The notes below the pieces were generated by a model. It ran no database searches and was not told the DNA's origin. It worked only from the letters and a program-made list of their open reading frames with translations. From IMG/VR virus record IMGVR_UViG_3300026457_000013, positions 1-64,000 of that record: 64,000 bases of DNA; one strand, written 5' to 3'. Shown here piece by piece: positions 4,119 through 32,219 of the stretch. The position numbers and the translations under genes were made by a program. How positions within the stretch are numbered: position 1 is the first letter of the stretch; every line of letters starts with the position of its first letter. The stretch is from a virus.

Positions 4119-4213
4119 TTGCTTTCCTTTACTGAGTAAAATAATATTATACATCCTAAAGGAAAATAAATCAACTGTAAAAATTTTGTTGCGGAGCCTA
4201 AGCCCCGCAACAG

Positions 4214-5642: not shown

Positions 5643-5655
5643 AATAACTCCTCAA

Positions 5656-5839
5656 TATTGGGGTATTCTCTGTTTACTGCCTAGGCCGCTAAGCCCGTGC
5701 CCTAAACTTACATAACTTCATGACGGTTTGCCGTACTTTAGGGTCAGACACGCTTACTAGCTACTACTCCGGTCTTCACTAGTAAGAGACTCTGCAATGT
5801 TCCAGCTCATCTGGCTACGAGCAGAGAATACCCCAATAT
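5656..5839 (-). ncRNA. candidate structured RNA (184 nt)
   Basis: perfect 18-bp closing inverted repeat ATATTGGGGTATTCTCTG/CAGAGAATACCCCAATAT with internal stems; gene-free. Confidence 0.5.
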
Positions 5840-5862
5840 GGCCTAACACTAGGCCACGTTGG

Positions 5863-6873
5863 TTAACCTATGGTTTTTGCAAATTGTTGACTAGCAAGAT
5901 TCTTTTGCTTTGACTCGCACATAATGTCAGCCCAACTACTATGCGTAGCAGCCCATGAATTTACTCTGTTATTCCAGTAGTAGTCACTATGTGCTCGCAG
6001 TTTAGCTGATGTAAAACCCATGCCTGTAAGAGACTTGTAGTCGGGCAACTCATCTGCTGTGTGGTCGACAAGCACATCTTCTCTGGATACTGAATAGTGT
6101 ATAACAGGTCTAATACCTCGCCACGAATCTTTAACCACTCTAATTCGCTTGTCGTCAGGCTCAATGTACTCTCCCTTGCTGTATATCCAGTGATGATGTA
6201 TGTCTAGAACTAGGGCACAGTGTTCTACAAGTTCTAAACTATGCTCTAGACCCCAGGTATATTCTGCGTTTTCGATTGTTAATATGTTGCGTGCTTCTGG
6301 ACTTAACTTTCTAAGTGCTGCAATAATCCCTTGTGGACCACGTTTGCCTCCAATATGAACATTGCACTTAAAATCCTGAAATTTCCTACCATAGCCCATA
6401 TAACGGGCGACGTCAGTATGATACTCAAACTCAACAATACTATTATCAACAATTCCATCATTTTCACTCGCTAGTACACAAAATTGACCTGGGTGGAAGC
6501 TTAACCGTACATCTTTACCTCGTGCTATATCCCCTACTTTGCCTAGATGTGTTTCTAGGTATTTAACTACATCACTTTGAAAGTAGAACCACATCCAATC
6601 TTCATGTGTGTAAGCTGGAAATAAATCACTGCTAATGCGAAACTGACGCTGATCCCTAGGCAGGTTACCAACCCACTCTACCTGTCGCTTCAGTGTTTCA
6701 CAGTTGTGATGTATAATTGTCCAGATTTTTTCTACTGCTTTGTCCCTAGTTTGCTTGTTAAGATATGTTAGTGTTGTAGTAGTTGTATTTAGTTTTTTGT
6801 CGGCTTTGTCGTGATCTGTTTGAATCTTGCAAGCAAAGCCGATGCGTGGCTGTGTTATATCAAATGTGTGCAT
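5863..6873 (-). CDS. uvsE: UV damage endonuclease UvsE/UVDE
   Basis: RIGFAC, FRISSDLFP, RLSFHPGQF, LTIEN, LVLDIHHH, RAHSD and DIMCESK motifs. Confidence 0.93.
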   Translation of the reverse strand: MHTFDITQPRIGFACKIQTDHDKADKKLNTTTTTLTYLNKQTRDKAVEKIWTIIHHNCETLKRQVEWVGNLPRDQRQFRISSDLFPAYTHEDWMWFYFQSDVVKYLETHLGKVGDIARGKDVRLSFHPGQFCVLASENDGIVDNSIVEFEYHTDVARYMGYGRKFQDFKCNVHIGGKRGPQGIIAALRKLSPEARNILTIENAEYTWGLEHSLELVEHCALVLDIHHHWIYSKGEYIEPDDKRIRVVKDSWRGIRPVIHYSVSREDVLVDHTADELPDYKSLTGMGFTSAKLRAHSDYYWNNRVNSWAATHSSWADIMCESKQKNLASQQFAKTIG

Positions 6874-7084
6874 TTTATTGTGGCCACTTGTTAAGTGGAC
6901 AGTGATTAGTAATTCGTTTAGCGTAAATACTTATTATTTTTTCTGTTTGCTGACATATATCCATGATCTTGTTATAGCTGCTGCAAGTATCGCAGATTTT
7001 TGTTCTAACATCGTATAATGTTTCTTGATTTTGTTGTTGCATTTTATATTATAGCAATTTTCTTAAACTTTTTCAAGTGTTAAT

Positions 7085-7300
7085 TTATAGTCCTATTAAC
7101 CTTACACAAATGGGGCAAATAGGATTATCATCTAGGTCTGGTACTAGTTGTTTAGACCAAACGCCACAGTGCGTACACTGATCTATATGTTTACTGAGCT
7201 CTTGTACATCTAAACTGTCCATGTCTATGCCCAGGTCTTTGCAGACCTGGTATAGTGGTTTATGTGTTTTATTTAGATGTTTTGTTAGTATTTGATACAT
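7085..7300 (-). CDS. small zinc-ribbon protein
   Basis: CTHC...CPIC. Confidence 0.65.
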   Translation of the reverse strand: MYQILTKHLNKTHKPLYQVCKDLGIDMDSLDVQELSKHIDQCTHCGVWSKQLVPDLDDNPICPICVRLIGL

Positions 7301-7922
7301 CTACTTTATATCTATCGTCCAATTCAGGATGAGTTTTTTCAAATTCTAGTAAGAACATAATGCAGCAAGCGGCATGTGCAAGATGGCTTAGTCCACTTTC
7401 AGGATCCTTATCTTCACCATCGTTAAAGGCCATAATATGTCGCATAGCTGCGGCTAGTGGCCTTGACCAAACAAAGCCGTCGCGCCAATTGTGCGCGTGA
7501 TATTTATCAGCACCAAACTTTAACACTGCTGCTGTTTGATTTAGTGCTTCTGTACTCAATAGGTTAACAGGTAGCTTGTCACTATCAAACTTCAGGGCAC
7601 TACCAGTACCACTAGCAGTGCCGCCGGCACTACCACTACCGGTAATCGTACTATTAGTAAAGGTAATCTTACGCCAATCAAAAGGAATATTTTGTGGATT
7701 AGGATCGGTGTTTAGGTTAATGGTGTGTTGTGCACCCCAACCATCAAGTTTAATAACGTCTTCTTGATTAAGTGGTAAAATGTTTGTAGTTTCTAGTGTA
7801 GGTATAACACCCTCATAACCTGGATGATATGGTGCTTCTGCAACTAATTGTTTATAATCTGCATTATCTGCACTAGGCAGTTGTGGCTCTTTGTCAGTTG
7901 TGTAAATTTCGTATTTAGGCAT
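7269..7922 (-). CDS. dATP/dGTP diphosphohydrolase domain protein (DUF5664-like)
   Basis: KFDSDK, FGADKYHAHNWRDG, AAMRH and DPESGLSHLAHAAC motifs. Confidence 0.85.
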   Translation of the reverse strand: MPKYEIYTTDKEPQLPSADNADYKQLVAEAPYHPGYEGVIPTLETTNILPLNQEDVIKLDGWGAQHTINLNTDPNPQNIPFDWRKITFTNSTITGSGSAGGTASGTGSALKFDSDKLPVNLLSTEALNQTAAVLKFGADKYHAHNWRDGFVWSRPLAAAMRHIMAFNDGEDKDPESGLSHLAHAACCIMFLLEFEKTHPELDDRYKVDVSNTNKTSK

Positions 7923-7950
7923 AATAATAAGGGGGCTTATGCCCCCTGGT

Positions 7951-8352
7951 TTAGTTAATTGTAATCAACTTTGGTTTTTTACTCTCTGGAACAATTTGCT
8001 CTAGATAAATATTAAGCATACCGTCCTTATATTCTGCATGTTTAATTTTAATATGATCTTGTATATACAAGCTCTTCTCAAAATTACGCATTGCCAATCC
8101 TCTATACAGATAATGCTTATCTGCTTGCTCCACTTTACGACCGCGGATTGTCAATGTGTTCTCGTGAAGTTCTACTGTTAGCTCGTCCCGTCCAAAACCA
8201 GCAGCTGCTAACTCTACAAGCCAGTTGTCATCATCAAGTTTTACTACATTGTGTGGTGGATAAGTTTTAGTTGTTGCGCGAACATTATCCAGTTGATTAA
8301 AGATTCTGTCGAATCCGATTAATGCATGATTTACTAAATCTAATTGTGTCAT
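7951..8352 (-). CDS. small heat shock protein (Hsp20/IbpA-like)
   Basis: IGFDR, YPPHNVVK, ELAAAGF, YLYRGLAMRNF, DGML, VPESKKPKLI. Confidence 0.93.
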   Translation of the reverse strand: MTQLDLVNHALIGFDRIFNQLDNVRATTKTYPPHNVVKLDDDNWLVELAAAGFGRDELTVELHENTLTIRGRKVEQADKHYLYRGLAMRNFEKSLYIQDHIKIKHAEYKDGMLNIYLEQIVPESKKPKLITIN

Positions 8353-8356
8353 TGTA

Positions 8357-8378
8357 TCTCCTTAAATTTCAAGCAAGA
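8357..8378 (-). promoter_or_regulatory. ROSE-like RNA thermometer hairpin
   Basis: UCUUGCUUGA...UUAAGGAGA pairs the SD with a bulged G (UYGCU motif) directly 5' of hsp20. Confidence 0.6.
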
Positions 8379-8568
8379 TTTAGGCAGGAGGAATGTTTTA
8401 CTAGCCGGCCCTCCCACTGCTAGTGTTTTTTAGCCACCGTCGGCAAAACGGCATATTTAAGGCGTAGCATAAGCGTCGCAACTAACATTGCCGTGTTAGT
8501 GTGTTGATGCCGCTGCTGTAGTTGAGTTGTCTATGCACTATTGCTAAATGAGCCAACTACCCAAACGC

Positions 8569-9108
8569 TCAAAAACTTTTACGAAGTCCCAAACCCCAGG
8601 CACTTTCTTTTATATCTTGTGTACTTTTACTAACACCAATGTTAGCACTTAGGTCTTTTGTTAGTGGAGCACTTACGCCTAAAAAGGTAACTGTTTGTTT
8701 GGGATTGTGATCATCCCAGTTTACTCGTGTTTTAGCACCAGCATATGCATATAGTTTACCAATTGGCATACCGCCGCTAACACCTACTAGGCCATACTGA
8801 AAACTTTTGCTACCATTAAAGCCAAGATCGTGACCAACTCCTAGAAATGGGCTTAGCGGACCGATTTGTTTACTGGCTGTAAATTCTGCACTATGCACCA
8901 TACCACCACCATCAAAACTAGCTGTGCGAAGTTGCATCATAGTGTTTAGTCCCATAACAGGAGCTCCAACACGAACATAGTGTGCCTGACTATCTTTGCC
9001 ACCTTTAGCGTCTGCTTTAACTTGATCTAGATCATAGCTAACAAAACCAGCAGCTTGTGCACTACCAAATCCTAGTGCAATTAATGCGGTTAATAACGTT
9101 TTTTTCAT
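8569..9108 (-). CDS. outer-membrane beta-barrel protein
   Basis: MKKTLL...AQA signal peptide, alternating amphipathic strands, C-terminal Phe (GLGLRKSF). Confidence 0.75.
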   Translation of the reverse strand: MKKTLLTALIALGFGSAQAAGFVSYDLDQVKADAKGGKDSQAHYVRVGAPVMGLNTMMQLRTASFDGGGMVHSAEFTASKQIGPLSPFLGVGHDLGFNGSKSFQYGLVGVSGGMPIGKLYAYAGAKTRVNWDDHNPKQTVTFLGVSAPLTKDLSANIGVSKSTQDIKESAWGLGLRKSF

Positions 9109-9166
9109 TGACTGTCCTCTGTAGTTTAGGGTCAAGATAATATTATAACCCTAATAACAAAATTTT

Positions 9167-9361
9167 TCAAGATAGGTTTTTTCGAGGTTTGAGCAAAGCA
9201 CCACAATCCCTTGTGTGCTTAATTTCACGGATTATGTCATAATTGATTTCTTTGGCTAATTTACTAAATGGATAGCGCCTACAATAATCCTCATAAGCAG
9301 GCAATAAGGTATCTACTATCAAATGTTCTAGTTCTGCTGTATAGTTTACAATTTTAGACAT
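9167..9361 (-). CDS. hypothetical protein
   Basis: ATG after GGAGGAG; one of a divergent sigma70 promoter pair at ~9380-9482 lies upstream. Confidence 0.65.
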   Translation of the reverse strand: MSKIVNYTAELEHLIVDTLLPAYEDYCRRYPFSKLAKEINYDIIREIKHTRDCGALLKPRKNLS

Positions 9362-9523
9362 TAACTCCTCCATTTCCCCTATTATAGCAGCCCGGCAAAA
9401 ACTTTTCAAGACAATTTTTTTATAGTTTGGCGCCGCCCTGCCCATATTTTCACTTGAAAAGTTTTTGCCATTCCGGTATAATAGGAAAGTTACAATTATT
9501 ATAGGATTTGACGAGGAAATACT

Positions 9524-10006
9524 ATGAACTATACTGCTATGTTGTTATTAGCAGTAGTATGTTTGCTTTTCCCTACCACAACTATTAAAACATTTACAGA
9601 TGCGCCCTTTCGTGCGTTTTATGTTGTACAACATACACAAAAAGACTTAATATGCCTAGCAAAAAATATATACTTTGAAGCAAGAGGGGAAGAACTAACT
9701 GGTAAGGTGGCTGTTGCACAGGTAACCTTAAACCGAGTACTACATGCTAGTAATTTTGAAAAAACGATCTGCAAAGTGGTCTATAGTAAAGACCAGTTTA
9801 GTTGGACTAATAATAGTAAGCATGTTATAAATGACCTAGCTCGCTGGGAAGAAAGTTTAAAAGTAGCACAAGGTGTGCTAGCAGGCAAACTATTTATAGA
9901 AAACTTTGATGCACTGTACTTTCATGCACAATATGTCAAACCACAGTGGCAAAAAACAAAACAATATTTAATTAAAATAGGTAATCACGTATTTTACACG
10001 GAATAA
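9524..10006 (+). CDS. cell wall hydrolase (SleB/Hydrolase_2 family)
   Basis: CLAKNIYFEARGE, AVAQVTLNRV, QFSW, IGNHVFY. Confidence 0.92.
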   Translation: MNYTAMLLLAVVCLLFPTTTIKTFTDAPFRAFYVVQHTQKDLICLAKNIYFEARGEELTGKVAVAQVTLNRVLHASNFEKTICKVVYSKDQFSWTNNSKHVINDLARWEESLKVAQGVLAGKLFIENFDALYFHAQYVKPQWQKTKQYLIKIGNHVFYTE

Positions 10007-10007
10007 T

Positions 10008-10682
10008 ATGAACACAGCACATATTTGGTGGGCAACACCAGACATAGACAAAAATATAGCGCAAATTGCGCGTGTAAGTAATCCTAGCAACCAAATGAAC
10101 CAAGAATATCGCGGACTATTACAGTATATGATTAGGGAAGGCCATGTTAGTCCATTTGAAATGGTTAATGTTTGCATGGAAATTAATACAACACGCGATA
10201 TTGCTCGCCAAATACTACGCCATAGGTCGTTTAGTTTTCAAGAGTTTTCGCAACGCTATCAAACGGTTGAAGCGTTGGGTGCGCTAGATATATCACGCGA
10301 ACCAAGGCTGCAAGATAAAAAGAATCGCCAAAACAGCATACCACTAAACTACCTACAAGATAAAGATCGCATACTAGGGTCACAGTGGGAATATAGATTA
10401 AAAACTATAGCTGAGGATGCACAGCGACACTACGACTGGGCTATTAGTGCTGGTATTGCTAAAGAACAAGCCCGCGCAATCTTACCAGAAGGATTAACAC
10501 CTAGCCGTATGTATATGAATGGTACACTACGAAGTTGGATATTTTACTTAAAACAGCGACTAGACCCTAGCACTCAAAAGGAGCATAGGCTAGTAGCTAA
10601 ATGTGCATACAATGAGCTTTGTCATGTTGCACCTATTACAATGGAGGCTATGTTTGGAACCCAAGACAAGCTGGACACTTAG
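10008..10682 (+). CDS. thyX: flavin-dependent thymidylate synthase
   Basis: GHVSPFE, RHRSFSFQEFSQRY, KEQARAILP, TQKEHR. Confidence 0.95.
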   Translation: MNTAHIWWATPDIDKNIAQIARVSNPSNQMNQEYRGLLQYMIREGHVSPFEMVNVCMEINTTRDIARQILRHRSFSFQEFSQRYQTVEALGALDISREPRLQDKKNRQNSIPLNYLQDKDRILGSQWEYRLKTIAEDAQRHYDWAISAGIAKEQARAILPEGLTPSRMYMNGTLRSWIFYLKQRLDPSTQKEHRLVAKCAYNELCHVAPITMEAMFGTQDKLDT

Positions 10683-10821
10683 AGTAGAAGTAGACGAGCA
10701 TGGCGAACCTTGTATTATATTACCAGACGACGTGATCGAACAAGTAGGCTGGAAAATAGGCGATATTATACGTTGGGTTAAACGTGATAATGATAGCTGG
10801 ATCCTAGAACGAATATCATGA
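10603..10821 (+). CDS. AbrB/MazE-like small protein (true start likely ~10654)
   Basis: IILPDDVIEQVGWKIGD swapped-hairpin signature. Confidence 0.65.
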   Translation: MHTMSFVMLHLLQWRLCLEPKTSWTLRVEVDEHGEPCIILPDDVIEQVGWKIGDIIRWVKRDNDSWILERIS

Positions 10822-11207
10822 ATATTGTACTATACACGCAAGACTTTGAGCCTATTACTGTTATAGACTTACCAATGTGGTTATTAGATAAAGTAGATAG
10901 TGAAGGCTATGTAAAAGTAGCTGTACCTAAACGCCTAGACATAAAAAATATTGCAGAAAGTGCTGCCAGTGGTAGCCCACTACAAGAACTGTATGATACT
11001 ATTACTATAGTTGGCACTAGGTTGTACTGGCGAGATGGTACACCTAGAACTATTTATACAACTACTGCTAAAGACGAAGAACTTGCACTAGTGCTAAAAC
11101 CCAACTGGTTACCTGGTCAGCGCATGCAAATTAATAATTACCAAGAAGCTATTACATTCTTAGCAACCCAACTTAAACATCATATCAAGAAAAACGATCT
11201 TGACTAA
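10818..11207 (+). CDS. conserved hypothetical protein
   Basis: VLYTQDFEPITVIDLP; ATGA overlap. Confidence 0.75.
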   Translation: MNIVLYTQDFEPITVIDLPMWLLDKVDSEGYVKVAVPKRLDIKNIAESAASGSPLQELYDTITIVGTRLYWRDGTPRTIYTTTAKDEELALVLKPNWLPGQRMQINNYQEAITFLATQLKHHIKKNDLD

Positions 11208-11254
11208 TATGGTTACGGCCTGTATAATATATCTTTATTTACTGGAATACTAAC

Positions 11255-11479
11255 GTGAGAAAATACCGCACCAACAAGATTCCTAAATTGCAACCGCCCC
11301 CAGGCCGTGAAACGCCTTATATACCAAGTCGCGACAGCGGCACTGGTGTGGCGGCCAAGCGCGAAAATCCCGTATATACTGGTGGCAATATTATTGGTAT
11401 TGGTACACTACACAAGTCAAATGCTGTGCCTATCTTTAGCCAACAAGAGGCCCGTGACATCAGCGCTATGCGGAGATAA
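11255..11479 (+). CDS. conserved phage hypothetical protein
   Basis: YTG..IIGIGTLHKSNAVPIF...ISAMRR; promoter TTGACT-17-TATAAT upstream. Confidence 0.75.
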   Translation: MRKYRTNKIPKLQPPPGRETPYIPSRDSGTGVAAKRENPVYTGGNIIGIGTLHKSNAVPIFSQQEARDISAMRR

Positions 11480-11480
11480 T

Positions 11481-11663
11481 ATGCAACTGTCAAGAAAACA
11501 GATTAATCAACTGGCTGAGATTGCAGATCACTTTCAAGAAGTTAACGTATATGAATTATACGAAGAACACACGGGCATTGGGCCTGTTATAAAGGTAAAG
11601 TTTTCACTTTTTGGCAAAATGAGTGATACTAGCGTAGATATAACTGATGTGGAGAGTTGGTAG
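11481..11663 (+). CDS. hypothetical protein
   Basis: ATG after GGAG; ends DITDVESW. Confidence 0.7.
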   Translation: MQLSRKQINQLAEIADHFQEVNVYELYEEHTGIGPVIKVKFSLFGKMSDTSVDITDVESW

Positions 11664-11866
11664 TGAATATACCTGTACAAGCAAAGTTTATTGAGTGGTT
11701 TTATAACAAGTCCTTTCCTAGCTATGACAGTAAGCGAAACCGCAACGGTTTTTTAGGCGATATGTTAGACATGAATAAAATTGATCACGATGCACTGCAA
11801 TACTGGATACAAGAGGCATTTCATCAAGGTGCTAAGGCACAGCGTGAACTAGATAGCGAGAAATAG
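11657..11866 (+). CDS. hypothetical protein
   Basis: ORF in tightly packed operon. Confidence 0.6.
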   Translation: MVVNIPVQAKFIEWFYNKSFPSYDSKRNRNGFLGDMLDMNKIDHDALQYWIQEAFHQGAKAQRELDSEK

Positions 11867-11867
11867 T

Positions 11868-12242
11868 ATGGGATCACTAAAACCAGGCGTACAGTACATA
11901 TACGAACATCGTGACGGTAAAGTATACGCTCGTGAAGCTGGTGCATCACCTGATACTGCTGTGGTTATAGGTGGAGATTGGAAACCAGATAGCCTAGAAA
12001 CAAAGCTGCACAAACTGGAGCAGGATATTGTGGAATTAAAACAACTTGTACAACGACTAGTGCCACCAGTTATGCCTGTTAATCCTACTACTTGGCGAAA
12101 GGGTTGCCAAGTATGTGGCATGACTACTGAAAGTGCTATGGGATATGTATGCTCAAACCCTAGCTGCCCTGTTCGCGTAACTAGTAGTAGAATTGTAACA
12201 CAACCAAGCGTATATATAGACCTAGACAGAGAACAAGCATAA
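11868..12242 (+). CDS. hypothetical protein with C-terminal Cys motif
   Basis: MGSLKPGVQYIYE...VYARE; CQVC...CSNPSC. Confidence 0.7.
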   Translation: MGSLKPGVQYIYEHRDGKVYAREAGASPDTAVVIGGDWKPDSLETKLHKLEQDIVELKQLVQRLVPPVMPVNPTTWRKGCQVCGMTTESAMGYVCSNPSCPVRVTSSRIVTQPSVYIDLDREQA

Positions 12243-12252
12243 AGGAACTAAC

Positions 12253-12903
12253 GTGAAAGTAATTATTGGCCCATATAGAAACTGGTTTGGCCCGTATCAG
12301 CTAGCTGACCTGCTTTGCTTGTGGGTCAAAGAAGTCAAAGACAAAGAAGGTAACCTAGACAAGCCACAGTGGGTACATCGTTTTGGCGAGTGGCTTGCTG
12401 AAAAGAAGGATGGCACTCCTACTCTACTACATAAGTTCTTATTATGGGTAGATAGCAAGCGTGAACGACAAGTGTATGTAAAGATTAATCCCTGGGATAC
12501 TTGGTCAATGGATCATACCCTAAGTCACATAGTTGTACCAATGCTCAAGCAATTGAAAGCAACTAAGCATGGTGCTCCACATGTAGATGACGAGGATGTG
12601 CCAGAGCATCTCAAGAGTACTAGTGCACCCCCAAAAGAGCATGATTATGACGTTGATGATAATCACTTTAAACGCTGGGACTGGGCACTAGATGAAATGA
12701 TTTGGGCTTTTCAGCAAAAACTGGATGATAATCCCGATGATCAGTTTTACACTCATCCTACACAAGAGGAGCGTAGTGGCAAAAGCTTTCAAGAGCAAAT
12801 TGAGCTGATTAAGGTTGACCGTGAAGGTTTAGACGCCTGGCAAGCTCGCAAAGCTAACGGCTATAGACTATTTGGCAAATACTACGAAGGATTGTGGGAC
12901 TAG
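12253..12903 (+). CDS. conserved phage hypothetical protein
   Basis: WDTWSMDHTL, KHGAP, DEMIWAF, LFGKYYEGLWD. Confidence 0.8.
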   Translation: MKVIIGPYRNWFGPYQLADLLCLWVKEVKDKEGNLDKPQWVHRFGEWLAEKKDGTPTLLHKFLLWVDSKRERQVYVKINPWDTWSMDHTLSHIVVPMLKQLKATKHGAPHVDDEDVPEHLKSTSAPPKEHDYDVDDNHFKRWDWALDEMIWAFQQKLDDNPDDQFYTHPTQEERSGKSFQEQIELIKVDREGLDAWQARKANGYRLFGKYYEGLWD

Positions 12904-12905
12904 CT

Positions 12906-13076
12906 ATGGAAATACTATTTGGAATTGGCATATTCTTTTTAGTGTGGGGTATAATTGTTTGGCGACTTAAAGTTGTGCAAGCCAGACAAGAACGTTGGGT
13001 TGATAGTGCTTACACTAGACCTAACTACACTAAATTTAGCGGTTACTGGGTTTGGCCTAAAAGTCCAGAAATATAG
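12906..13076 (+). CDS. small membrane protein
   Basis: N-terminal hydrophobic helix. Confidence 0.55.
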   Translation: MEILFGIGIFFLVWGIIVWRLKVVQARQERWVDSAYTRPNYTKFSGYWVWPKSPEI

Positions 13077-13118
13077 TGTTGACACAATGGGTTAATTGCC
13101 CTATAATATATAAATATT

Positions 13119-13196
13119 GTGAGAGTGGCTGAGTGGTCAAAGGCAACGGTCTGCAAAACCGTACAATCATCGGTTCAAATCCGATCTCTCACTCCA
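13119..13196 (+). tRNA. tRNA-Cys(GCA)
   Basis: cloverleaf, CTGCAAA loop, CCA; promoter TTGACA-17-TATAAT at 13079-13107. Confidence 0.92.
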
Positions 13197-13201
13197 AATA
13201 T

Positions 13202-13286
13202 GGACAACGAGCAGCATTGGCGACTGCAGCAGACTGTAAATCTGTCACCTCTGGTATACGGGGTTCGATTCCCTGGTTGTCCACCA
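13202..13286 (+). tRNA. tRNA-Tyr(GUA)
   Basis: CTGTAAA loop, long variable arm, CCA. Confidence 0.9.
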
Positions 13287-13288
13287 AT

Positions 13289-13366
13289 ACCTCCTTAGCT
13301 CAGATGGATTAGAGCAGCGGGCTACGAACTCGCAGGTCGGGCGTTCGAGTCGCTCAGGGGGTGCCA
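13289..13366 (+). tRNA. tRNA-Arg(ACG)
   Basis: CTACGAA loop, CCA. Confidence 0.92.
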
Positions 13367-13368
13367 AT

Positions 13369-13442
13369 TCCGGTGTAGTATAATGGCAGTGCAACGGTCT
13401 CCAAAACCGTTAGTGGGGGTTCGATTCCCTCCACCGGAGCCA
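13369..13442 (+). tRNA. tRNA-Trp(CCA)
   Basis: CTCCAAA loop, CCA. Confidence 0.92.
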
Positions 13443-13487
13443 AATCTTTAATATGCTAGTTGTTTACAGCTGATATATTAAAGATTT

Positions 13488-13577
13488 GGAAAGCGGGCCG
13501 GATGGTAAGGCAGCGGATTGCTAATCCGTAGATTCACGAAAGTGGGTCACAGGGTTCGACTCCCTGGCTTTCCGCCA
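13488..13577 (+). tRNA. tRNA-Ser(GCU)
   Basis: TTGCTAA loop, long variable arm, CCA. Confidence 0.92.
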
Positions 13578-13584
13578 AATCAAT

Positions 13585-13659
13585 TCTGAGATAGCTCAGC
13601 GGTAGAGCAGTTGGCTGTTAACCAATTGGTCGTAGGTTCGATCCCTACTCTCAGAGCCA
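13585..13659 (+). tRNA. tRNA-Asn(GUU)
   Basis: CTGTTAA loop, CCA. Confidence 0.93.
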
Positions 13660-13665
13660 AACAAT

Positions 13666-13739
13666 CGCGGGTTGTTGAAAAGGTATCATGAAGGTCTCAT
13701 AAGCCCTCGTTCTAGGTTCGACTCCTAGACCCGCAACCA
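13666..13739 (+). tRNA. tRNA-Met(CAU), initiator-like
   Basis: CTCATAA loop; C1xA72 mismatch as in fMet. Confidence 0.85.
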
Positions 13740-13740
13740 A

Positions 13741-13816
13741 TCCAGATTAGCTCAGTTGGTAGAGCAAACGACCGATAATCGTTAGGTCAGTGGTTCGAGT
13801 CCACTATCTAGAACCA
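13741..13816 (+). tRNA. tRNA-Ile(GAU)
   Basis: CCGATAA loop, GTTCGAGTC, CCA. Confidence 0.9.
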
Positions 13817-24849: not shown

Positions 24850-25161
24850 ATGAAATACAACAAGGAACTAACTGACAAGATTGTGGAGCAGTATAAAAGT
24901 GGTCAAACCGCTAAACAAATAGCAGAAGGTCTTGGCGTCGCTGACCGTAGCATAATTGCCAAGCTGAGCAGTTTGGGTGTCTACCAAAAAAAGACGTATG
25001 TCAACAAACGTGGTGAGGTGCCCATCAAGAAGTACGAGATGATCGAACGATTGGCCGAATTGTTGGAGGTGCCAAGCGATCAGCTGGAGAGTTTGGAAAA
25101 AGTCAACAAAAACGTACTTAAATTGCTTGAAAACCGCTTATCTGACCCTAAACCGCAATAA
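24850..25161 (+). CDS. T5 A2/D3-like DNA-binding protein (paralogue 2)
   Basis: IVEQYKSG...RSIIAKLSSLGVY...ESLEKVN. Confidence 0.7.
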   Translation: MKYNKELTDKIVEQYKSGQTAKQIAEGLGVADRSIIAKLSSLGVYQKKTYVNKRGEVPIKKYEMIERLAELLEVPSDQLESLEKVNKNVLKLLENRLSDPKPQ

Positions 25162-25192
25162 TCGTCGATAATCCAGCTAAATTCTAGCCAAT

Positions 25193-25219
25193 AAGCCCTG
25201 CCTTGTGCAGGGCTTTTTT
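25193..25219 (+). terminator. rho-independent terminator
   Basis: AAGCCCTGC-CTTGT-GCAGGGCTTTTTT; same loop as at 23455. Confidence 0.85.
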
Positions 25220-25798
25220 ATTGTGTGACATAGTGGGTTTCTGCGGTTTAGGGTCAGAATTATTTACTTGACTTGGGTCAGGGATTTGCACTATAATGTT
25301 GGCGCAGACCCCCAAGATTTTGCACTTGTGGAGTTTTGGCACTGGCGCAAGCTCAAAGTTTAGCACTTGAGTTTTTGCACTGGCGCAGCACCACTGGTGG
25401 TGTGCTAAGTTCTAGAACGTATAATGTTATGGACCCTAAACCGTTATGGTTTATATAATTTAGCATGGTTACAGAAATTGGTACGTTATAGAAACTAACC
25501 GACCAGCGGCGGCTTAGGGTCGACAAACGGTGGCATTTTCGCTTGACACCCACGCAAATTTTATGGTAAAATTTGGCGCCATATCGTTATAAATTATATA
25601 AATCATAACCTGGCCAATCGACCCGACCAGTGGCAGTTAGCGGCTGATGAACGGCAGGAAAAACGCTTGACACCCGCGCAATTATACTAGTATAATTGGC
25701 GCCACCGCTATAAAAAATATAGCGGTGCAAATTCTATATTTTATAACCGTTATGTGAAAAATAACGGCCCGCTCGGGGCCGTTATGGTTTTTAGAATC

Positions 25799-26113
25799 CT
25801 AGTCTACCAAATCCATTTCCAGCATGTTATCAATTATATAACCTGGAAGCTTGGTAGTTTCGCAATTCATATAACGCTCTAGGGCTAAGAACTCGCCAAT
25901 CTTGCGATCAAACTTGTCATTATCAGCGCACCAAGCAAAGCTAACGTCATAAAATTTAGCATGACGCGCATTGTGCGCACAAGGCATGGCCACAAGAGCG
26001 AATCCGTTTTCATCACCCATAGGTGCGCGAGTGTGGACAATTCCGCCAGATTCTAGAACGTAGGCAAGCAAGTCCTTACGAATGATTTTTTGGTTTTTGG
26101 TCATTTTTTCCAT
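25799..26113 (-). CDS. hypothetical protein
   Basis: AWCADNDKFDRKIGEFLALER; AAGGA RBS. Confidence 0.7.
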   Translation of the reverse strand: MEKMTKNQKIIRKDLLAYVLESGGIVHTRAPMGDENGFALVAMPCAHNARHAKFYDVSFAWCADNDKFDRKIGEFLALERYMNCETTKLPGYIIDNMLEMDLVD

Positions 26114-26168
26114 AACAGTAGTTCCTTTTAGAGTTTAGAACGGAACGGGTTTTGGCCCGTTCCAGTTT

Positions 26169-26495
26169 TTACAGCGGTTTGCTGTTAGCTAAAGCATCGA
26201 AAATCGCTTTAAGAGCCGACTTGTTAGCCTTAGTTAGCGATTCTATATCGTTTTCCGATAGGCGAAGAATCGCGCCGATTGCATCGGCCGTTACATCTTT
26301 TTTAACGGGCTTTTCGCCAGTTTTTGTAACGTACTGTTTTGCAACATAAACTTTCTCGCGCGAAAGTTTCGCTACAATCGAACGAACGGTTTTACCCATA
26401 GCCGAAGCAATATCTTCGACCTTGACGCCCGCCTGATAGTCCGCTATAATTTTAGCGGTTTGCTCGGCGGTATAGTTAACGGCTTTTTCTGCCAT
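26169..26495 (-). CDS. T5 A2/D3-like DNA-binding protein (paralogue 3)
   Basis: ATG at 26495 after AGGAG; MGKTVRSIVAKLSREKVYVAK. Confidence 0.75.
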   Translation of the reverse strand: MAEKAVNYTAEQTAKIIADYQAGVKVEDIASAMGKTVRSIVAKLSREKVYVAKQYVTKTGEKPVKKDVTADAIGAILRLSENDIESLTKANKSALKAIFDALANSKPL

Positions 26496-26797
26496 TGCTA
26501 TAGCTCCTAGAACTGTTGCAGTTTCGACCCCATGTCCCCTGCAACAGAACCCATTATACACCTATCTGCCTGGCAGATTGTCGCCCTAGCGACAATTGGC
26601 CTACCATTCATCAGGTGGATCAGCGGCAACCCCACCCGACCAGCGGCAGACTGCATCCGACGAACGGCACCCCGCAGGGCTTGACACGCAGGCAAAAATT
26701 ATGATATAATTATATCATAATTTTGGCGCCATCGCTCTAAATTCTATAACTTAGAGCGATATAATAAAAAATATAGCGGCTTGTGCCGCTATATTTT

Positions 26798-27187
26798 TTA
26801 TAACGTCCTCACAATTGGTTCGTTTTTATTTATATAATATTCATGGGTTGCGCTTGGTGGCAAGCCATACTCTAGCATCATGCGCCGCCAATCAGGGCCA
26901 TGCCAAAAGTCTGTGGGGTCTTCGCCATTAATTATATAATCTGCAACATGGATTAGCTCATGCGGTACAATAACGCAAAGCATCTCGGCTTTATAACGGT
27001 TAAAAAACTTGCTAGCAAATTCTACCTCATGCACCTCGCAGTGTGCGAGGCCCGCAGTGCGATACATGCGATTGCTAATTCTAACTTTTGGAACGCTATG
27101 CGTTTTTAGTTCTGGCCACAATTCTTGCATAGCAGTCCAGTGTAGGGTAACAGCGGCTGTTACAACTTTTATCAACGAATCGGCCAT
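26798..27187 (-). CDS. SprT-like zinc metalloprotease
   Basis: RTAGLA, PHELIH, HGPDWR. Confidence 0.85.
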   Translation of the reverse strand: MADSLIKVVTAAVTLHWTAMQELWPELKTHSVPKVRISNRMYRTAGLAHCEVHEVEFASKFFNRYKAEMLCVIVPHELIHVADYIINGEDPTDFWHGPDWRRMMLEYGLPPSATHEYYINKNEPIVRTL

Positions 27188-27423
27188 AATTTATACCTCG
27201 CAATAATTGTTACAAGAAATAGATTGACGATATAGTTTGCTATAAGAATCATATCGCCTTTGGGCACGATATAGACTGTCATGGAAACCATACCAGTCCA
27301 CCACATTGTTATAAAACCTAGTGTAAGCCCGTCTGAGTTTTTAGAACGATAGGATTCAATGGCTTGGGGCAGGGCCGAAGCCCCAAGCAGTATAGAACCT
27401 AGAACGCCGAATGTATCAAACAT
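27172..27423 (-). CDS. PQ-loop/SemiSWEET-like small transporter
   Basis: 83 aa, three hydrophobic helices, ALPQAIESYRSKNSDGLT, IANY. Confidence 0.75.
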   Translation of the reverse strand: MFDTFGVLGSILLGASALPQAIESYRSKNSDGLTLGFITMWWTGMVSMTVYIVPKGDMILIANYIVNLFLVTIIARYKLWPIR

Positions 27424-28108
27424 TGTAATGATCCTTGACCTGAAATTTTTTCCAATCATAGGGCTCGATCTTATCGCGCCAACCTTTAGAACGTACAATT
27501 TTTTGTAGGATTGGAATCTCAAAATCGCGGGCATCCTCAAGGGCAGTGTGGGGTTCAGTAGTAAGATTACCAGTTACAAAACCTGCAACAGTCTCGGCAT
27601 CAGTCTTGAACGTCATATTACCTTTATCGGTCGCATTATTAAAACGATGATTGTCGAGCACAAAACGCTTATACTTTTTGGAACGGCAGATGTTACCTAC
27701 AGCGGCTTGCCAAAGGCAAAAGCGGCTAGTGAAAGAATCTAGAACGATACCAGAGTTAGCACATTTGCTAGCGTCGAAGGCGAGATTGTATGCGGTTAGA
27801 ATAGGGTCATAAGTACCGATACATTTATTAATCCAATTATTTATAGCGGTTACCGACGCAAGCATACGTGTACCAGAATCTAGCATGTTCTGATAATTAG
27901 CACGACGACGCTCAAGGTTAGCAGAGGCCCAGAAACCGTTATTGTTTTTGTCATGGAATAAGGTTGCAGGGTCATAGAACTCACGAACTAGAACGCTACA
28001 ACTATTGTAAATCTTGCCGTGACGGTCACAAACCACAATGGCAAAATCCATAACGGTATCGTTGATAGTCGTTTCAGTATCTAGAACAGCGAAGTATTGT
28101 CGTTTCAT
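27416..28108 (-). CDS. DEDDh 3'-5' exonuclease
   Basis: VLDTET, AYNLAFD, HTALEDA. Confidence 0.88.
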   Translation of the reverse strand: MKRQYFAVLDTETTINDTVMDFAIVVCDRHGKIYNSCSVLVREFYDPATLFHDKNNNGFWASANLERRRANYQNMLDSGTRMLASVTAINNWINKCIGTYDPILTAYNLAFDASKCANSGIVLDSFTSRFCLWQAAVGNICRSKKYKRFVLDNHRFNNATDKGNMTFKTDAETVAGFVTGNLTTEPHTALEDARDFEIPILQKIVRSKGWRDKIEPYDWKKFQVKDHYNV

Positions 28109-28339
28109 AATTTATAACCTAGTAAATGTGACAGAACCCCTAGTATACCACAAAATCCGCGCAAGTGCCAGTTTTGGCTGCCGCCCATCGGCTGTGGGCC
28201 GCCGCACATCCGACCGACCAGCGGTCGCCAGGAGCCGACGAACGGTCGGCCCGGGCCTTGACACGCCTGCAAAAATTATGGTATAATTTTTGGCGCCATG
28301 GCTATAAATTTTATAATTTATAGCCATAACGTGGAACAG

Positions 28340-28355
28340 TGTTCCACGTGAAACC
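28340..28355. other. parS-like site
   Basis: TGTTCCACGTGAAACC, 15/16 to the chromosomal parS consensus TGTTNCACGTGAAACA; extra half-site CGTGGAACA just upstream. Confidence 0.75.
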
Positions 28356-28558
28356 TAAACTTTGTGCAAACTATCCCAAATTGCAAGATTACGCTGTGCC
28401 ATTTTTTGGTACAATTCAGCGCCTACCAAGTGGCCGCGACTAATATCGTTTCTAGAATATTGTAAATATCGTTCTGCATTTTCTAACAACATGCGACTAG
28501 CAAGTTTGTGCCAAAACGTAGAACGATTGGCTAGGTCTTTCCAATATTGCTCGCTCAT
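28355..28558 (-). CDS. hypothetical protein
   Basis: 67-aa ORF, ATGA-coupled. Confidence 0.6.
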   Translation of the reverse strand: MSEQYWKDLANRSTFWHKLASRMLLENAERYLQYSRNDISRGHLVGAELYQKMAQRNLAIWDSLHKV

Positions 28559-28740
28559 ACTAATTCCTCAGGTAAACTGTTATATTCTTTATAAAGGCTA
28601 TCGTACATTCTAATAACCCAACCTATATCGTTCCAATCGCTAACCGTTCCAAAATCTGGACGATAGCCGTATATATCAAAATACAGATCGCAAAATTTGT
28701 CCTGCATTGCCCAAAGTTCTATAGCCTTTACATTTTTCAT
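28555..28740 (-). CDS. hypothetical protein
   Basis: DLYFDIYGYRP motif. Confidence 0.6.
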   Translation of the reverse strand: MKNVKAIELWAMQDKFCDLYFDIYGYRPDFGTVSDWNDIGWVIRMYDSLYKEYNSLPEELV

Positions 28741-28741
28741 A

Positions 28742-29218
28742 TCAATGTCCTTGTTTGCTTGGAACATAAACGCCCCTAATGTTAAAGTAATCACAAACCG
28801 CTTTAAGATATGCTACATTATCCTCATAAAATACAGCGTCATTAAAATGATAACCTAAATTGCTATACAATTTGAAAATCCGTTTTAGTCCTTCAATCTT
28901 GAGAGTAGCACCAGAACGGTTATCATTTTCATTACGGCTAACTATATGGTCAGGTGTACCTAGTCTGCTATAAATAAATGCACGATCAGGGTTCCGCAAA
29001 ATGCGGGCAGTAGCAATAACAACAATACAGTAGGGATCATCGAGATCGTTTTTATATTGTTCTGCAAGTGGTAACAGTGAATCCTCCAGTGCGCGATATT
29101 CATTAGCACGCCAGTAGTCGAGGTCAATGCGCTCAATACCGTTATCAACAATGGTACGATACCTGTGCATACTGCAAACGATTGTGCCATCCATGTCATA
29201 GATTGCTATCCTTTTCAT
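28742..29218 (-). CDS. HAD-superfamily phosphatase
   Basis: IYDMDGT, ATAR, conserved K, FYEDN motifs I-IV. Confidence 0.85.
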   Translation of the reverse strand: MKRIAIYDMDGTIVCSMHRYRTIVDNGIERIDLDYWRANEYRALEDSLLPLAEQYKNDLDDPYCIVVIATARILRNPDRAFIYSRLGTPDHIVSRNENDNRSGATLKIEGLKRIFKLYSNLGYHFNDAVFYEDNVAYLKAVCDYFNIRGVYVPSKQGH

Positions 29219-29537
29219 AACCTATATCCTTATAAAGTCTAGAATGTTGTAAGGTTTAACTTGTCTGCCCTTGCCCTATCGGCCCTATCCGAGGGTAGGC
29301 GGGGTTACTAGCCGCCTAGAGTCATGCCCTACAACAGAAACAAGTATACCTGAATTTTTGAGGTCAAATGTCGTCCAAGCGACAATTGCCTACCATCCAT
29401 ACCTTACAGCCTGCCACACATCAGCCGACCAGTGGTCGACCCTACCCGATGAACGGCGGCCCTGGGGCTTGACACGGCTGCAAATTATATGCTATAATTT
29501 GGCGCGTCAGCGCTCTAAGTTCTATAACCTAGAGCAG

Positions 29538-29553
29538 TGTTTCACGTGAAACT
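29538..29553. other. parS-like site
   Basis: TGTTTCACGTGAAACT; perfect 14-bp palindrome GTTTCACGTGAAAC. Confidence 0.8.
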
Positions 29554-29663
29554 GTATCGTGCTAAAAACCATAGCATGCCCATAACGTACAACCACAGCA
29601 TCATCATAATAATGTTTCTATAATTCATATCGTTATAGTAGGGGCTTGCGCCCCTACCCCTTG

Positions 29664-29990
29664 CTAGTCGGCAGATTGCCTGATAAAATCGCTGATTGCA
29701 CGCAGTGCGCTCTTGTTAGCTTTCGTTAACGATTCTATATCGTTCTCTGAGAGCTTGAGAGCTGCGCCGATAAAATCAGCGTGAACGTCTTTTTTGATGG
29801 GGCTTTCGCCGTTCTTGGTTCTATATTCTTTAGCGACGTAAACCTTTTCACGGCTGAGCTTTGCTACAATTGAGCGAACAGTCTTGCCCATTGCTTGTGC
29901 AATTTGCTCAACGCTAACACCGGCCTGATAGTCGGCCACAATCTGAGCAGTTTGCTCAGGGCTATAATTAGGGGCTTTGGCTGTTGCCAT
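29664..29990 (-). CDS. T5 A2/D3-like DNA-binding protein (paralogue 4)
   Basis: close relative of paralogue 3 (LSENDIESLTKANKSAL shared); promoter TTGACT-17-TATACT at 30052-30024. Confidence 0.78.
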   Translation of the reverse strand: MATAKAPNYSPEQTAQIVADYQAGVSVEQIAQAMGKTVRSIVAKLSREKVYVAKEYRTKNGESPIKKDVHADFIGAALKLSENDIESLTKANKSALRAISDFIRQSAD

Positions 29991-30270
29991 TTCAGCTACT
30001 CCTGTTGTGTTGAAAGAAACTCTAGTATAGGCTAGTTGTAGTGCTAAGTCAAGTAAAAAATCTTACCGCTCGTCGGCCAGTAACTACCATTGGTCGGCTT
30101 AACACAGTTATAAACTTTACTACAAGTTTTGTGCTAAGTTATAGAACTTATACCGACCAGGGGCGGTTGTTAGACTTTATATAACTTATAGCGGTGGGGC
30201 CCTCGCTTACGGCCTATCATTAAAAATTTTTCGAAAAGACCAAGGTGCCAAATCCGACCCTAAACCGTAC

Positions 30271-30314
30271 CAACAGCCACAACAGCCACAACAGCCACAA
30301 CAGCCACAACAGCC
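30271..30314 (+). repeat. 9-bp tandem repeat (CAACAGCCA)x~5
   Basis: read directly from sequence. Confidence 0.9.
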
Positions 30315-30386
30315 CACTGCCCAAAAAATTTTCAACTTGCCTAACAACTACCACCCATGATATACTCCAATAAACTGGAGAAACCA

Positions 30387-30857
30387 ATGACTACACACCT
30401 ACCAGCCGAAACCCTACAAATCTCACCAGAAGCACTGGAAGTAGCCAACTGCTATCTTCAGCTTAATGATGCTAAAAGGGTAGCCCATGAACTAAGCCTA
30501 CATCCAGACCAAGTCACACAAATCTTAGGTCGCCGCGAGGTCAAGCAGTATATTGACCAAGTATTCTTTGACATGGGCTACAACAACCGATTTTTAATGC
30601 GTCAGGCAATGGATGCACTAATCAAGCAAAAGTTTTCTGAGTTGGAGGAAGCTGGTGTTGGATCTAGCAAAGATATTGCAGACTTATTACACCTGTCGCA
30701 TAAAATGTCAATGGATCTCCTAGACAAGCAATTGCAGCTGGAAAAGCTGCGCACACAAGCTCCAGGCCCACAAAAGCAGGTGAACGTGCAAATCAATGAT
30801 GATGGCAGCAAGTATTCGCAGCTTATACATAAACTTGTGAGTGGAGACGGCATATGA
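30387..30857 (+). CDS. terS: terminase small subunit (T5-like)
   Basis: ISPEALEVAN.YL, EVKQYID..F.D.GY.NR, SSKDI.DLL; position before TerL; GGAG RBS. Confidence 0.8.
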   Translation: MTTHLPAETLQISPEALEVANCYLQLNDAKRVAHELSLHPDQVTQILGRREVKQYIDQVFFDMGYNNRFLMRQAMDALIKQKFSELEEAGVGSSKDIADLLHLSHKMSMDLLDKQLQLEKLRTQAPGPQKQVNVQINDDGSKYSQLIHKLVSGDGI

Positions 30858-30929: not shown

Positions 30930-32219
30930 ATGCTCGTAGTAAGCAGAAATAACGTAGAAACAGAGTACATTAAGGAGTTTGATCCTACCAAGCGATTTAT
31001 CAAACTGCCTATCGACAACTACTTACGACTCTTAAATCTATACGATACCATCAACAGGCCCCAAATCGCACTAATCAATAGTGTTAATGATCCACAGTAT
31101 AGGTTTATCTGTGCTGCACTTGCCAGACGATTGGGCAAAACATACATAGCCAATGTTATAGGTCAGCTGGTTACACTAGTACCCAACAGTAATGTACTTA
31201 TCATTAGCCCTAACTATAATTTGAGTGCAATCAGTTTTGAGCTGCAGCGTAGGTTAATCAAGCATTTTGACCTGGAAGTAACCCGTGATAACCTCAAGGA
31301 CAAGATTATTGAGCTCAGCAATGGATCAACTATCAGAATGGGATCTATTAGCACAGTGGATTCAACAGTTGGTCGTAGTTATGACCTTATAATATTCGAC
31401 GAGGCTGCACTTAGTGAGCATGGCGAGGACGCATTTAACATTGCCTTACGCCCTACACTAGACAAACCATCGGCAAAAGCCATATTTATTAGCACACCAC
31501 GTGGTAAAAACAACTGGTTTTCAAAGTTCTGGTCGCGTGGATTTGACCCTAACTTTCCAGAGTGGGTTAGTTTGCAGGCAGATTATTCGGAGAATAGCCG
31601 CATGGCACAGTCGGATGTTGATGAAGCACGTAGATCCATGTCGAAGTCGGAGTTTGAGCAGGAATATATGGCAAGTTTTACTAGTTACTTAGGCCAAATT
31701 TATGAAGGGTTTAAGCCTGAGTATATCCTAGACCAACTACCAGACCTGCGCGGTGAAGCTATTGCTGGTGTAGATGTAGGATACAAGGATGCCACTGCCT
31801 GGGTTAACATAATATACGACTATAATACCGACTGTTTTTATGCTGTAGAAGATTATTTGGAGCCAGAGCGTACTACTAGAGAACATGCCGAACATTTTCA
31901 TAGAATGATAGATAGTTGGAGTATACAAACTGTATTTATTGATAGTGCAGCAGCACAATTTGCTGCTGACCTAGCTTACAACTACGATATTGCTACTACT
32001 AAAGCTAAAAAAGACGTACTTGCAGGCATTGCATACGTGCAAACACTAGTCCAGCAAGGCAGATTTAGGGTACACAGAAATTGTCACCACGTTATAGCTA
32101 TGCTAGATGCTTATCAGTGGGATAACCGCGAAAATTTAGCGCGTGAACGTCCTAAACACAACGAGTACAGTCACATGGCTGATGCTGTTCGTTATGCACT
32201 ATACAGTTATGTAGTATAG
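30930..32219 (+). CDS. terL: terminase large subunit (T5-like)
   Basis: ARRLGKT Walker A, VGRSYDLIIFDEAA, ISTPRG, FEQEY, SHMADA.RY. Confidence 0.95.
   Translation: MLVVSRNNVETEYIKEFDPTKRFIKLPIDNYLRLLNLYDTINRPQIALINSVNDPQYRFICAALARRLGKTYIANVIGQLVTLVPNSNVLIISPNYNLSAISFELQRRLIKHFDLEVTRDNLKDKIIELSNGSTIRMGSISTVDSTVGRSYDLIIFDEAALSEHGEDAFNIALRPTLDKPSAKAIFISTPRGKNNWFSKFWSRGFDPNFPEWVSLQADYSENSRMAQSDVDEARRSMSKSEFEQEYMASFTSYLGQIYEGFKPEYILDQLPDLRGEAIAGVDVGYKDATAWVNIIYDYNTDCFYAVEDYLEPERTTREHAEHFHRMIDSWSIQTVFIDSAAAQFAADLAYNYDIATTKAKKDVLAGIAYVQTLVQQGRFRVHRNCHHVIAMLDAYQWDNRENLARERPKHNEYSHMADAVRYALYSYVV

Follow-up and report, generated by a model that had tools for sequence, protein, structure and literature searches.

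What purpose is served by strong promoters that have no gene to transcribe? The question is raised by a 64-kb stretch of DNA, hereafter the window, that corresponds to positions 1-64,000 of one IMG/VR virus record of 82,252 bp (IMGVR_UViG_3300026457_000013; class linear, 78% complete) from an uncultured river phage distantly related to T5. Upstream of the terminase genes terS and TerL, the window has a block in which every real gene, from 25.8 to 30.0 kb, is on the minus strand. Plus-strand promoter cassettes occupy every gap between these opposite-strand operons, each facing the end of the preceding operon. A cassette consists of two 11-bp boxes on one face of the helix, a consensus -35 element, a rigid 18-bp spacer, a palindromic -10 element, GGCGC(C) located at the expected transcription start and then a hairpin that mostly is, or soon precedes, a two-way intrinsic terminator. 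This architecture is real, strongly conserved and unusual, and belongs to an uncultured freshwater clade of T5-like phages. As to its role, we tentatively favor an interpretation in which the RNA is disposable and the cassette has a cis function, serving both as a boundary and as the strong member of a regulated pair of divergent promoters.

The cassettes were noticed originally in the sequence as six modules, five on the plus strand and one inverted. All six are present at the positions then given, with box1 and box2 starting 21 bp apart in every copy and the -35 hexamer starting 23 bp (copies 1, 2, 4 and 5) or 24 bp (copies 3 and 6) after the start of box2, as predicted. The spacer, predicted to be 18 bp throughout, is 18 bp in the five plus-strand copies and 17 bp in the inverted copy. 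Cassette 1 (25499-25609) has box1 at 25499-25509, box2 (TCGACAAACGG) at 25520-25530, a -35 at 25543-25548, a -10 at 25567-25572 and GGCGCC at 25575-25580. Cassette 2 (25623-25795) has boxes at 25623-25633 and 25644-25654, a -35 at 25667-25672, a -10 at 25691-25696 and GGCGCC at 25698-25703, followed by a hairpin at about 25704-25727 and a two-way terminator at 25761-25785 with a T-run. In cassette 3 (26636-26800), the boxes are at 26636-26646 and 26657-26667, the -35 at 26681-26686, the -10 at 26705-26710 within a 26-bp palindrome, GGCGCC at 26725-26730, a hairpin at 26731-26760 and a two-way terminator at 26765-26800. Cassette 4 (28214-28327) has boxes at 28214-28224 and 28235-28245, a -35 at 28258-28263, a -10 at 28282-28287, GGCGCC at 28292-28297 and a hairpin at 28298-28327 with no T-run after it. 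The boxes of cassette 5 (29425-29535) are at 29425-29435 and 29446-29456, with the -35 at 29469-29474, the -10 at 29493-29498, GGCGCG at 29501-29506 and a hairpin at 29512-29535. The original prediction placed the palindromic -10, TGGCGC and a hairpin in every module, and this is only partly correct. Copies 2, 3 and 4 fold strongly (z -3.8, -7.7 and -6.6), copy 5 has GGCGCG and folds weakly (z -2.2), and in copy 1 the -10 is TAAAAT, without a significant hairpin downstream (z +0.73). Cassette 6, the inverted copy (30097-30024, minus strand; box1 CCGACCAATGG at 30097-30087, box2 CCGACGAGCGG at 30076-30066, TTGACT at 30052-30047, TATACT at 30029-30024), lacks the palindrome, GGCGCC and the hairpin. 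It does precede, as stated originally, an A2-like gene (29664-29990, minus strand) whose product matches phrog_1725 with an E-value of 7e-6.

An exact box-pair pattern gave four matches in the window and none in 100 shuffles; copy 1 was missed by this pattern because its box2 begins TCGAC. With up to one mismatch allowed, CCGACCAGNGG has nine matches (shuffle mean 1.02), eight of which are inside 25499-30163, and CTTGACACNNNNGCAA, with no mismatch allowed, matches exactly the five plus-strand copies. Throughout the 82,252-bp record, all 11 box-like sites, including a lone box1 at 30153, are inside 25499-30153. A chance origin is excluded by these box-pair counts and by this confinement of the sites. 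An independent scan for the sigma-70 consensus scored four of the window copies at 12/12 and copy 1 at 11/12, consistent with the original description of the modules as putative promoter units of fixed geometry.

Relatives of the phage were collected with the exact box-pair pattern, which matched 31 IMG/VR stretches, and with a TerL search that confirmed 496 relatives, of which the best 80 loci were kept. From these best 80 loci, plus the window, came 121 distinct promoter cores. The spacer is 18 bp in 120 of the 121, the -10 is TATAAT in 102 and TAAAAT in 18, and GGCGC follows the -10 after 0-4 nt in 108 cores and after 13-15 nt in 13. At TerL-bearing loci all 171 copies (from 59 loci, some being two cuts of one contig) are on the TerL strand, upstream of TerL and terS, and records with enough flank carry 5-7 copies. 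The gene organization is also shared. Maps of ATG-started open reading frames (ORFs) with a minimum of 55 aa show that, in the window and in all seven relatives mapped, the 5-7 kb preceding terS has its long ORFs on the opposite strand, with one cassette per gap, three to four in tandem at the far edge and no plus-strand ORF behind any of them. The claim that the five plus-strand copies have no ORF to serve and face minus-strand operons holds, therefore, both in the window and in these seven relatives.

The box pair is present in 70 of 118 distinct copies with enough flank, starting 44 bp before the -35 in 52, 45 bp before it in 17 and 54 bp before it in one. Loss of this spacing in relatives had been named beforehand as the outcome that would speak against the modules; instead, box1 is 44-45 bp from the -35 in 69 of the 70 copies. 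Four more distant relatives (L093, L094, L099 and L102; TerL 74-76% identical) keep the -35, spacer, palindrome, GGCGC and hairpin but have, instead of the boxes, a TAGGG-N6-CCCTA dyad directly adjoining the -35. As these relatives keep the core and exchange the boxes, the conserved unit is, by this comparison of predicted elements, the promoter core, and the upstream sites are lineage-specific. None of the three closer relatives examined (L035, L069 and L083) has the tandem geometry of cassette 6. In its counterparts, the boxes form an inverted pair directly beside a TTGCTA -35 in L035 and L069, and L083 has a single box beside a TTGTCG...CGACAA palindrome. A degenerate form of the box-pair pattern matched at least 120 stretches of genome contigs, scattered over GC-rich taxa such as Streptomyces and Woeseiaceae, which is consistent with chance, and no host or host regulon was apparent among the matches listed.

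A further plus-strand promoter with the same type of start site but without boxes is located at 25268-25306 (TTGACT, 18-bp spacer, TATAAT, GT, TGGCGCA; 11/12 consensus). It has TTTAGGGTCAGAA upstream, lacks the palindrome and is kept in relatives. Behind it, at 25300-25395, there are three repeats of the type TTTTGCACT...CACTGGCGCA(G), also kept in relatives, that resemble the promoter's own -10 flank minus the hexamer.

Perfect palindrome arms of at least 8 bp extend over the -10 in 101 of 116 copies, as compared to 11 of 2320 composition-matched shuffles; the box-less class is among the 15 copies that lack them. Roughly 40 palindromes of different sequence occur. Their arms co-vary, TATAAT being paired with ATTATA and TAAAAT with ATTTTA, with A/T-runs of matched length, and the distance from the palindrome center to the -10 hexamer varies between copies. 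The -10 palindrome appears to be selected as a palindrome, and base pairing, or homogenization by template switching, fits better than a fixed protein operator; base pairing is preferred over such an operator because the arms change together and the distance from center to half-site is variable. A promoter on the reverse strand that shares the palindromic -10 was considered as a general explanation and rejected, because a passable -35 exists only in cassette 5.

The first 45 nt of the predicted transcripts have a median fold z of -2.82 and fold better than all 30 of their shuffles in 62 of 116 copies. The hairpin stems differ wholly between paralogues and between lineages and, in six variants of the stem type ACCGATATA...TATATCGGT, the loop alone varies. 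Conservation of the structure without that of the sequence is consistent with a disposable RNA. A hairpin with a T-run occurs within 150 nt in 72 of 116 copies (92 of 1000 random segments) and within 60 nt in 48 (29 of 1000 random segments). On the reverse strand of the same stretches, 55 of 116 also score as terminators, so that many of the terminators are likely two-way and common to the opposing operon. In the window, an intrinsic terminator with a stable hairpin and a T-run is present in cassettes 2 and 3 and is lacking from cassettes 1, 4 and 5. RNA 2 is predicted to end at 25795 and RNA 3 at 26800, each at the margin of the stop codon of the opposing gene (25799 and 26798, respectively). 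River metatranscriptome runs X15-X18, available as contigs that cover most of the stretch and carry no strand or end information, were considered as a source of transcript ends and set aside. The contig ends and joints fall at repeated cassettes (25549 is joined to 28272, for example), which indicates an assembly effect rather than transcripts, and depth in these contigs cannot rank genes.

Most cassettes are positioned back-to-back with the promoter of the next minus-strand operon. A -10 motif on the reverse strand is found within 200 nt upstream of 81 of 114 copies, as compared to 309 of 2000 random segments, with a distance peak at 110-129 nt in the closer relatives and at 60-69 nt in the distant ones, which have clear TTTTGTGGTATAAT-type promoters at the divergent position. 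In the window, minus-strand -10 elements are predicted at 26553-26558 (TATAAT) for the A2-like gene at 26169-26495, which starts at 26495, at 28142-28147 (TGGTATACT, an extended type with CTGGCA, an 18-bp spacer and TATACT with TG) for the operon starting at 28108, and at 29343-29348 (TATACT) for the dmp-like operon starting at 29218. In each pair, the cassette promoter is the stronger. An 18-bp dyad, TTGTCGC-N4-GCGACAA, is located just upstream of the divergent promoter of the A2-like gene (TTGTCGCCCTAGCGACAA, 26578-26595), and the same dyad recurs at about 29369-29386 upstream of that of the dmp-like operon and, in L083, upstream of the terS-proximal A2-like gene. It is plausible that this dyad is an operator for a dimeric regulator.

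The boxes are located between the two divergent promoters, in a stretch that neither transcribes, and are consequently DNA sites. The original prediction suggested that they might be read by the A2-like paralogues. This now appears doubtful. The putative recognition helix of these proteins, GKTVRS[IV]VAKLSREKVY, is unchanged in phages with the boxes and in phages with the TAGGG-type dyad, and the A2-like proteins are, for this reason, probably not the box readers. If GKTVRS[IV]VAKLSREKVY is the recognition helix, then the A2-like target should be common to all lineages. The trapping of RNA polymerase, the timing of genome entry and the pre-early shut-off that were also proposed originally receive no support from the present data.

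The interpretation that we favor is that each module would be a regulated sigma-70 promoter cassette and not a gene. Host RNA polymerase would bind strongly, synthesize a non-coding RNA of 35-100 nt and then fall off. The cassettes would mark and insulate the operon boundaries, and the shared boxes would couple the strong throw-away promoter to the neighboring operon promoter, with a lineage-specific DNA-binding protein setting the time at which each operon fires. Several points weigh against this interpretation. No simple terminator is present within 150 nt of 44 of the 116 copies and, in the window, transcripts from cassettes 1, 4 and 5, which lack a terminator, would continue into the adjacent cassette or, in antisense orientation, into a gene. 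A divergent partner is lacking for the three to four cassettes arrayed in tandem at the block's left edge. Where a two-way terminator ends the preceding operon, an opposing promoter is needless as a barrier, and a role as a boundary does not explain the co-varying palindrome, the invariant GGCGC or the tandem array at the edge. The cassette start sites, RNA ends and protein binding are, furthermore, all predicted from sequence alone.

The RNA could, alternatively, be the product, with the cassettes being small RNA (sRNA) genes whose transcripts function in trans; these might titrate a host RNA-binding protein or nuclease, as decoys or sponges do, or pair as antisense RNAs with the 3'-ends of the opposing messages. 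This is possible, although unlikely. Each cassette has its own promoter and terminator, the hairpins are significant, the 5'-terminal GGCGC(C) is invariant, and bacterial sRNAs usually take the form of a hairpin with a U tail after it. However, no sequence is conserved past GGCGC(C) between paralogues or lineages, the loops vary freely, many of the RNAs would be little beyond a terminator, and RNAs 2 and 3 cover no coding sequence. No Rfam family reached the gathering score, the six matches at E-values up to 1 all being far below it. The lambda Po/oop and PR'/6S units likewise combine a strong promoter with a short hairpin-ended RNA beside or against an operon, with oop opposing the end of the cII message. 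An overlap of the oop type with the opposing coding end is not seen for RNAs 2 and 3 and, for cassettes 4 and 5, depends on where the RNA ends. The phage cassettes differ from these lambda units in being present in 5-7 copies per genome, in every operon gap, in having upstream operator boxes and a palindromic -10, in producing RNAs with no common sequence and in having nothing downstream in the sense direction. The cassettes could also be antitermination-type promoters, as in lambda PR'/6S or HK022 put, which would be constitutive, with transcripts terminated at once until a phage factor or the nascent hairpin allows read-through, which would silence the pre-early operons by antisense transcription and continue into terS and TerL. 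Such a function would be suited by the combination of a strong promoter with a structured nascent transcript that meets a terminator at once, by the common direction of all copies towards terS, and by the -10-like hexamers in the early transcribed hairpins and CGCTCTAAA, which is present in cassettes 3 and 5 and which may resemble boxA. But terS has its own conserved promoter, every block gene downstream is antisense, whereas sense-oriented late genes follow the lambda PR'/Q late promoter, no Q-like gene was found, although no search aimed at one was made, and the hairpin sequences are not conserved. We consider this very improbable.

Four further explanations place the function in the DNA or in the act of transcription. 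The cassettes might be an engine or sensor of supercoiling, with strong, short, repeated transcription sending negative supercoils into the divergent promoter on newly injected, relaxed linear DNA and a cruciform, extruded from the AT palindrome over the -10, shutting the cassette off as superhelicity changes. We regard this as rather unlikely. It is consistent with the positioning of the cassettes back-to-back with promoters whose -35 elements are weak, with the rigid 18-bp spacer and with the palindromes, for which the excess of perfect arms (101/116 versus 11/2320), the roughly 40 sequences and the variable half-site spacing suggest base pairing. A transcript of 35-100 nt, however, yields few supercoils in each round, there is no divergent partner for the cassettes in tandem at the left edge, and template-switch repair could keep palindromes perfect without selection. 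Pairs of a strong promoter and a weaker neighbor, with regulator sites between them, are familiar from 186 pR/pL, lambda PR/PRM, leu-500 and ilvY/ilvC; in contrast to these switches and supercoiling-coupled pairs, the strong partner here has no gene, and the pair is repeated at every operon of the first-expressed block of a lytic phage. A broader and distinctly doubtful proposal is that futile transcription is itself a tool. Short-terminating promoters would act as supercoil pumps or barriers on newly injected relaxed DNA, switching on the weak divergent promoters in order, the palindromic -10 would be a cruciform off-switch once the genome is supercoiled, and the GGCGCC start, together with the parS-like and TAGAACG sites documented below, would be additional components of a kit for the control of DNA at first entry.

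Improbable, in our assessment, is that the cassettes are primarily a T5-type DNA signal, a nick site, an injection stop, a replication origin or a site for terminal-repeat processing, with their likeness to promoters being secondary. TG/GCGCC, with the slash at the nick, does fit the consensus N-Pu/pGCGC-N given in the T5 record, the box-less promoter and the repeats near it read GGCGCAG, and paired palindromes and phased repeats recall origins. The four annotated T5 nicks read RR/GCGCAGGG or RR/GCGCGGGC; the GCGC core is present in every cassette but the wider GCGCAGGG context, and the CGTAAT-type motif about 30 nt upstream, are absent, leaving only four bases in common. The T5 injection stop signal consists of DnaA boxes and long inverted repeats (Davison 2020, bioRxiv 10.1101/866236). 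Paired DnaA-box arrays in long inverted repeats are not found here; the window has six matches to the DnaA box (TTWTNCACA), only one of which is in the block, with 9.3 expected. Each cassette has two boxes, versus the three or more phased repeats, beside an AT-rich unwinding element and an initiator gene, of an iteron-type origin, and the promoter shows base-level conservation throughout the clade. Hardly any credence is given to the remaining possibility, that genome entry is driven by host RNA polymerase initiating at the plus-strand promoters, in the manner of the tandem early promoters of T7. Three to four strong tandem promoters at one edge of the block, and the single direction of all copies, would be appropriate, but terminators immediately follow most copies. 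No terminal repeat is present within the 82,252-bp record, which IMG/VR classes as linear and 78% complete.

Short inverted repeats just upstream of a start, with an over-long spacer, are features of the hairpin promoters of the N4 virion polymerase and of MerR-type operators. The cassettes differ from these in having full sigma-70 -35 and -10 elements, a spacer of 18 bp rather than 19-20 bp and a dyad centered near -13 rather than within the spacer. A search of the record for the phage (T7-type) RNA polymerase family gave no match, although the search control was also silent. No promoters of this kind were found in either the T5 terminal repeat or the 12-kb stretch preceding TerL in Vibrio phage vB_ValS_X1, and the papers searched, on T5-like pre-early regions and the injection stop signal, antisense and small RNAs and Demerecviridae, yielded neither such cassettes nor a parS in this phage family, supplementary repeat tables being outside the scope of that search. 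The cassettes are, then, known kinds of parts in a new arrangement.

The block that they occupy adjoins terS (30357-30857) and TerL (30930-32219), the best TerL matches among cultured phages being T5-like Vibrio phages, with 48% identity; near and distant DNA searches of the phage collection identified no DNA-level relatives of the block. Its minus-strand genes encode the A2-like helix-turn-helix protein at 29664-29990 (108 aa; profile match to phrog_1725), the A2-like paralogue at 26169-26495, an SprT-like protein, a 230-aa protein and a HAD phosphatase (28742-29218) that is dmp-like, with 30% identity to T5 dmp over 81 residues (E 1e-10). A third A2-like paralogue is encoded at 24850-25161 on the plus strand. 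The matches of the three paralogues to the T5 A2 family profile phrog_1725 (E 7e-6, 8e-6 and 3.6e-4) are weak and remote, covering profile positions from about 32 to 124 of 129, as compared to an E-value of 4e-52 for T5 A2 itself. BLASTP of the A2-like protein against T5 A2 was not significant (E 8.6), and a search of PDB sequences returned spurious matches only. The region was predicted to be pre-early. The T5 first-step-transfer region (NC_005859) is likewise a repeat-rich pre-early block by terS with dmp and the A2 family and, as the A2, A1 and dmp genes of vB_ValS_X1 are directly before terS and a dmp-like gene is present here, it is reasonable to designate the block as pre-early-like, although it is inverted relative to terS and no A1 homologue is seen in it. 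Elsewhere in the window, there are a tmRNA-like gene (180-577; tag peptide ANDEVFALAA) and 11 tRNA genes (553-13816).

The terS gene has its own conserved promoter (CTTGCC, 17-18-bp spacer, TGATATAMT), present in the window at 30337-30366 as TTGCCT, an 18-bp spacer and TATACT, and the actual start codon of terS is probably its second ATG (near 30387). The interval that separates the A2-like gene from terS (30170-30366) also has a tandem CCACAACAG repeat and a GGTGCCAAAATC element, the latter kept in all relatives. The cassette block as a whole is flanked by a 34-bp direct repeat, 79% identical and containing GTGCTAAGTTnTAGAAC, at 25390-25423 and 30119-30152, 4729 bp apart. Sites with one mismatch to the 16-bp palindrome of chromosomal, host-type parS (TGTTNCACGTGAAACA) directly follow cassette 4 (TGTTCCACGTGAAACC, 28340-28355) and cassette 5 (TGTTTCACGTGAAACT, 29538-29553), two in the window versus 0.14 expected. 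The 14-bp parS core recurs after cassettes in L035, L069, L083, L093 and L102, and no ParB_N domain is encoded in the 82-kb record. TAGAACG occurs nine times on the plus strand of 25170-30360, from 25413 to 28519, and not at all on the minus strand (0.27 expected). The copies are in various codon phases and in non-coding DNA, with a polarity of 7:0, 7:0 and 6:0 in the closer relatives that is not shared by the distant ones; TAGAACG may be an orientation-dependent signal of the Chi type. A further motif, TTTAGGGTC / GACCCTAAA, has 10 copies per strand of the record, all in its first 50 kb, at positions that include 23713, 23926, 24833, 25145, 25245, 25432, 25512 and 30265; one copy overlaps box2 of cassette 1 and another is upstream of the box-less promoter. 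In the distant relatives, a TTAGGG-type element also abuts the -35.

The ordering of the earliest transcription in T5-type phages is still unsettled, and Klimuk et al. (2020) state that it is unknown how the switch from one gene class to another is brought about. The strongest promoters of this region have nothing to express, which does not fit ordinary gene control. As the sites conform to the sigma-70 consensus, their activity can be evaluated directly with E. coli polymerase and reporters, with no need for a culture of the host. Trans-acting RNAs, if that is what the cassettes produce, would form a new class of phage sRNAs. Should the act of transcription be the product, rather than the RNA, then the cassettes would exemplify an unusual regulatory principle and would provide compact boundary parts for synthetic circuits.

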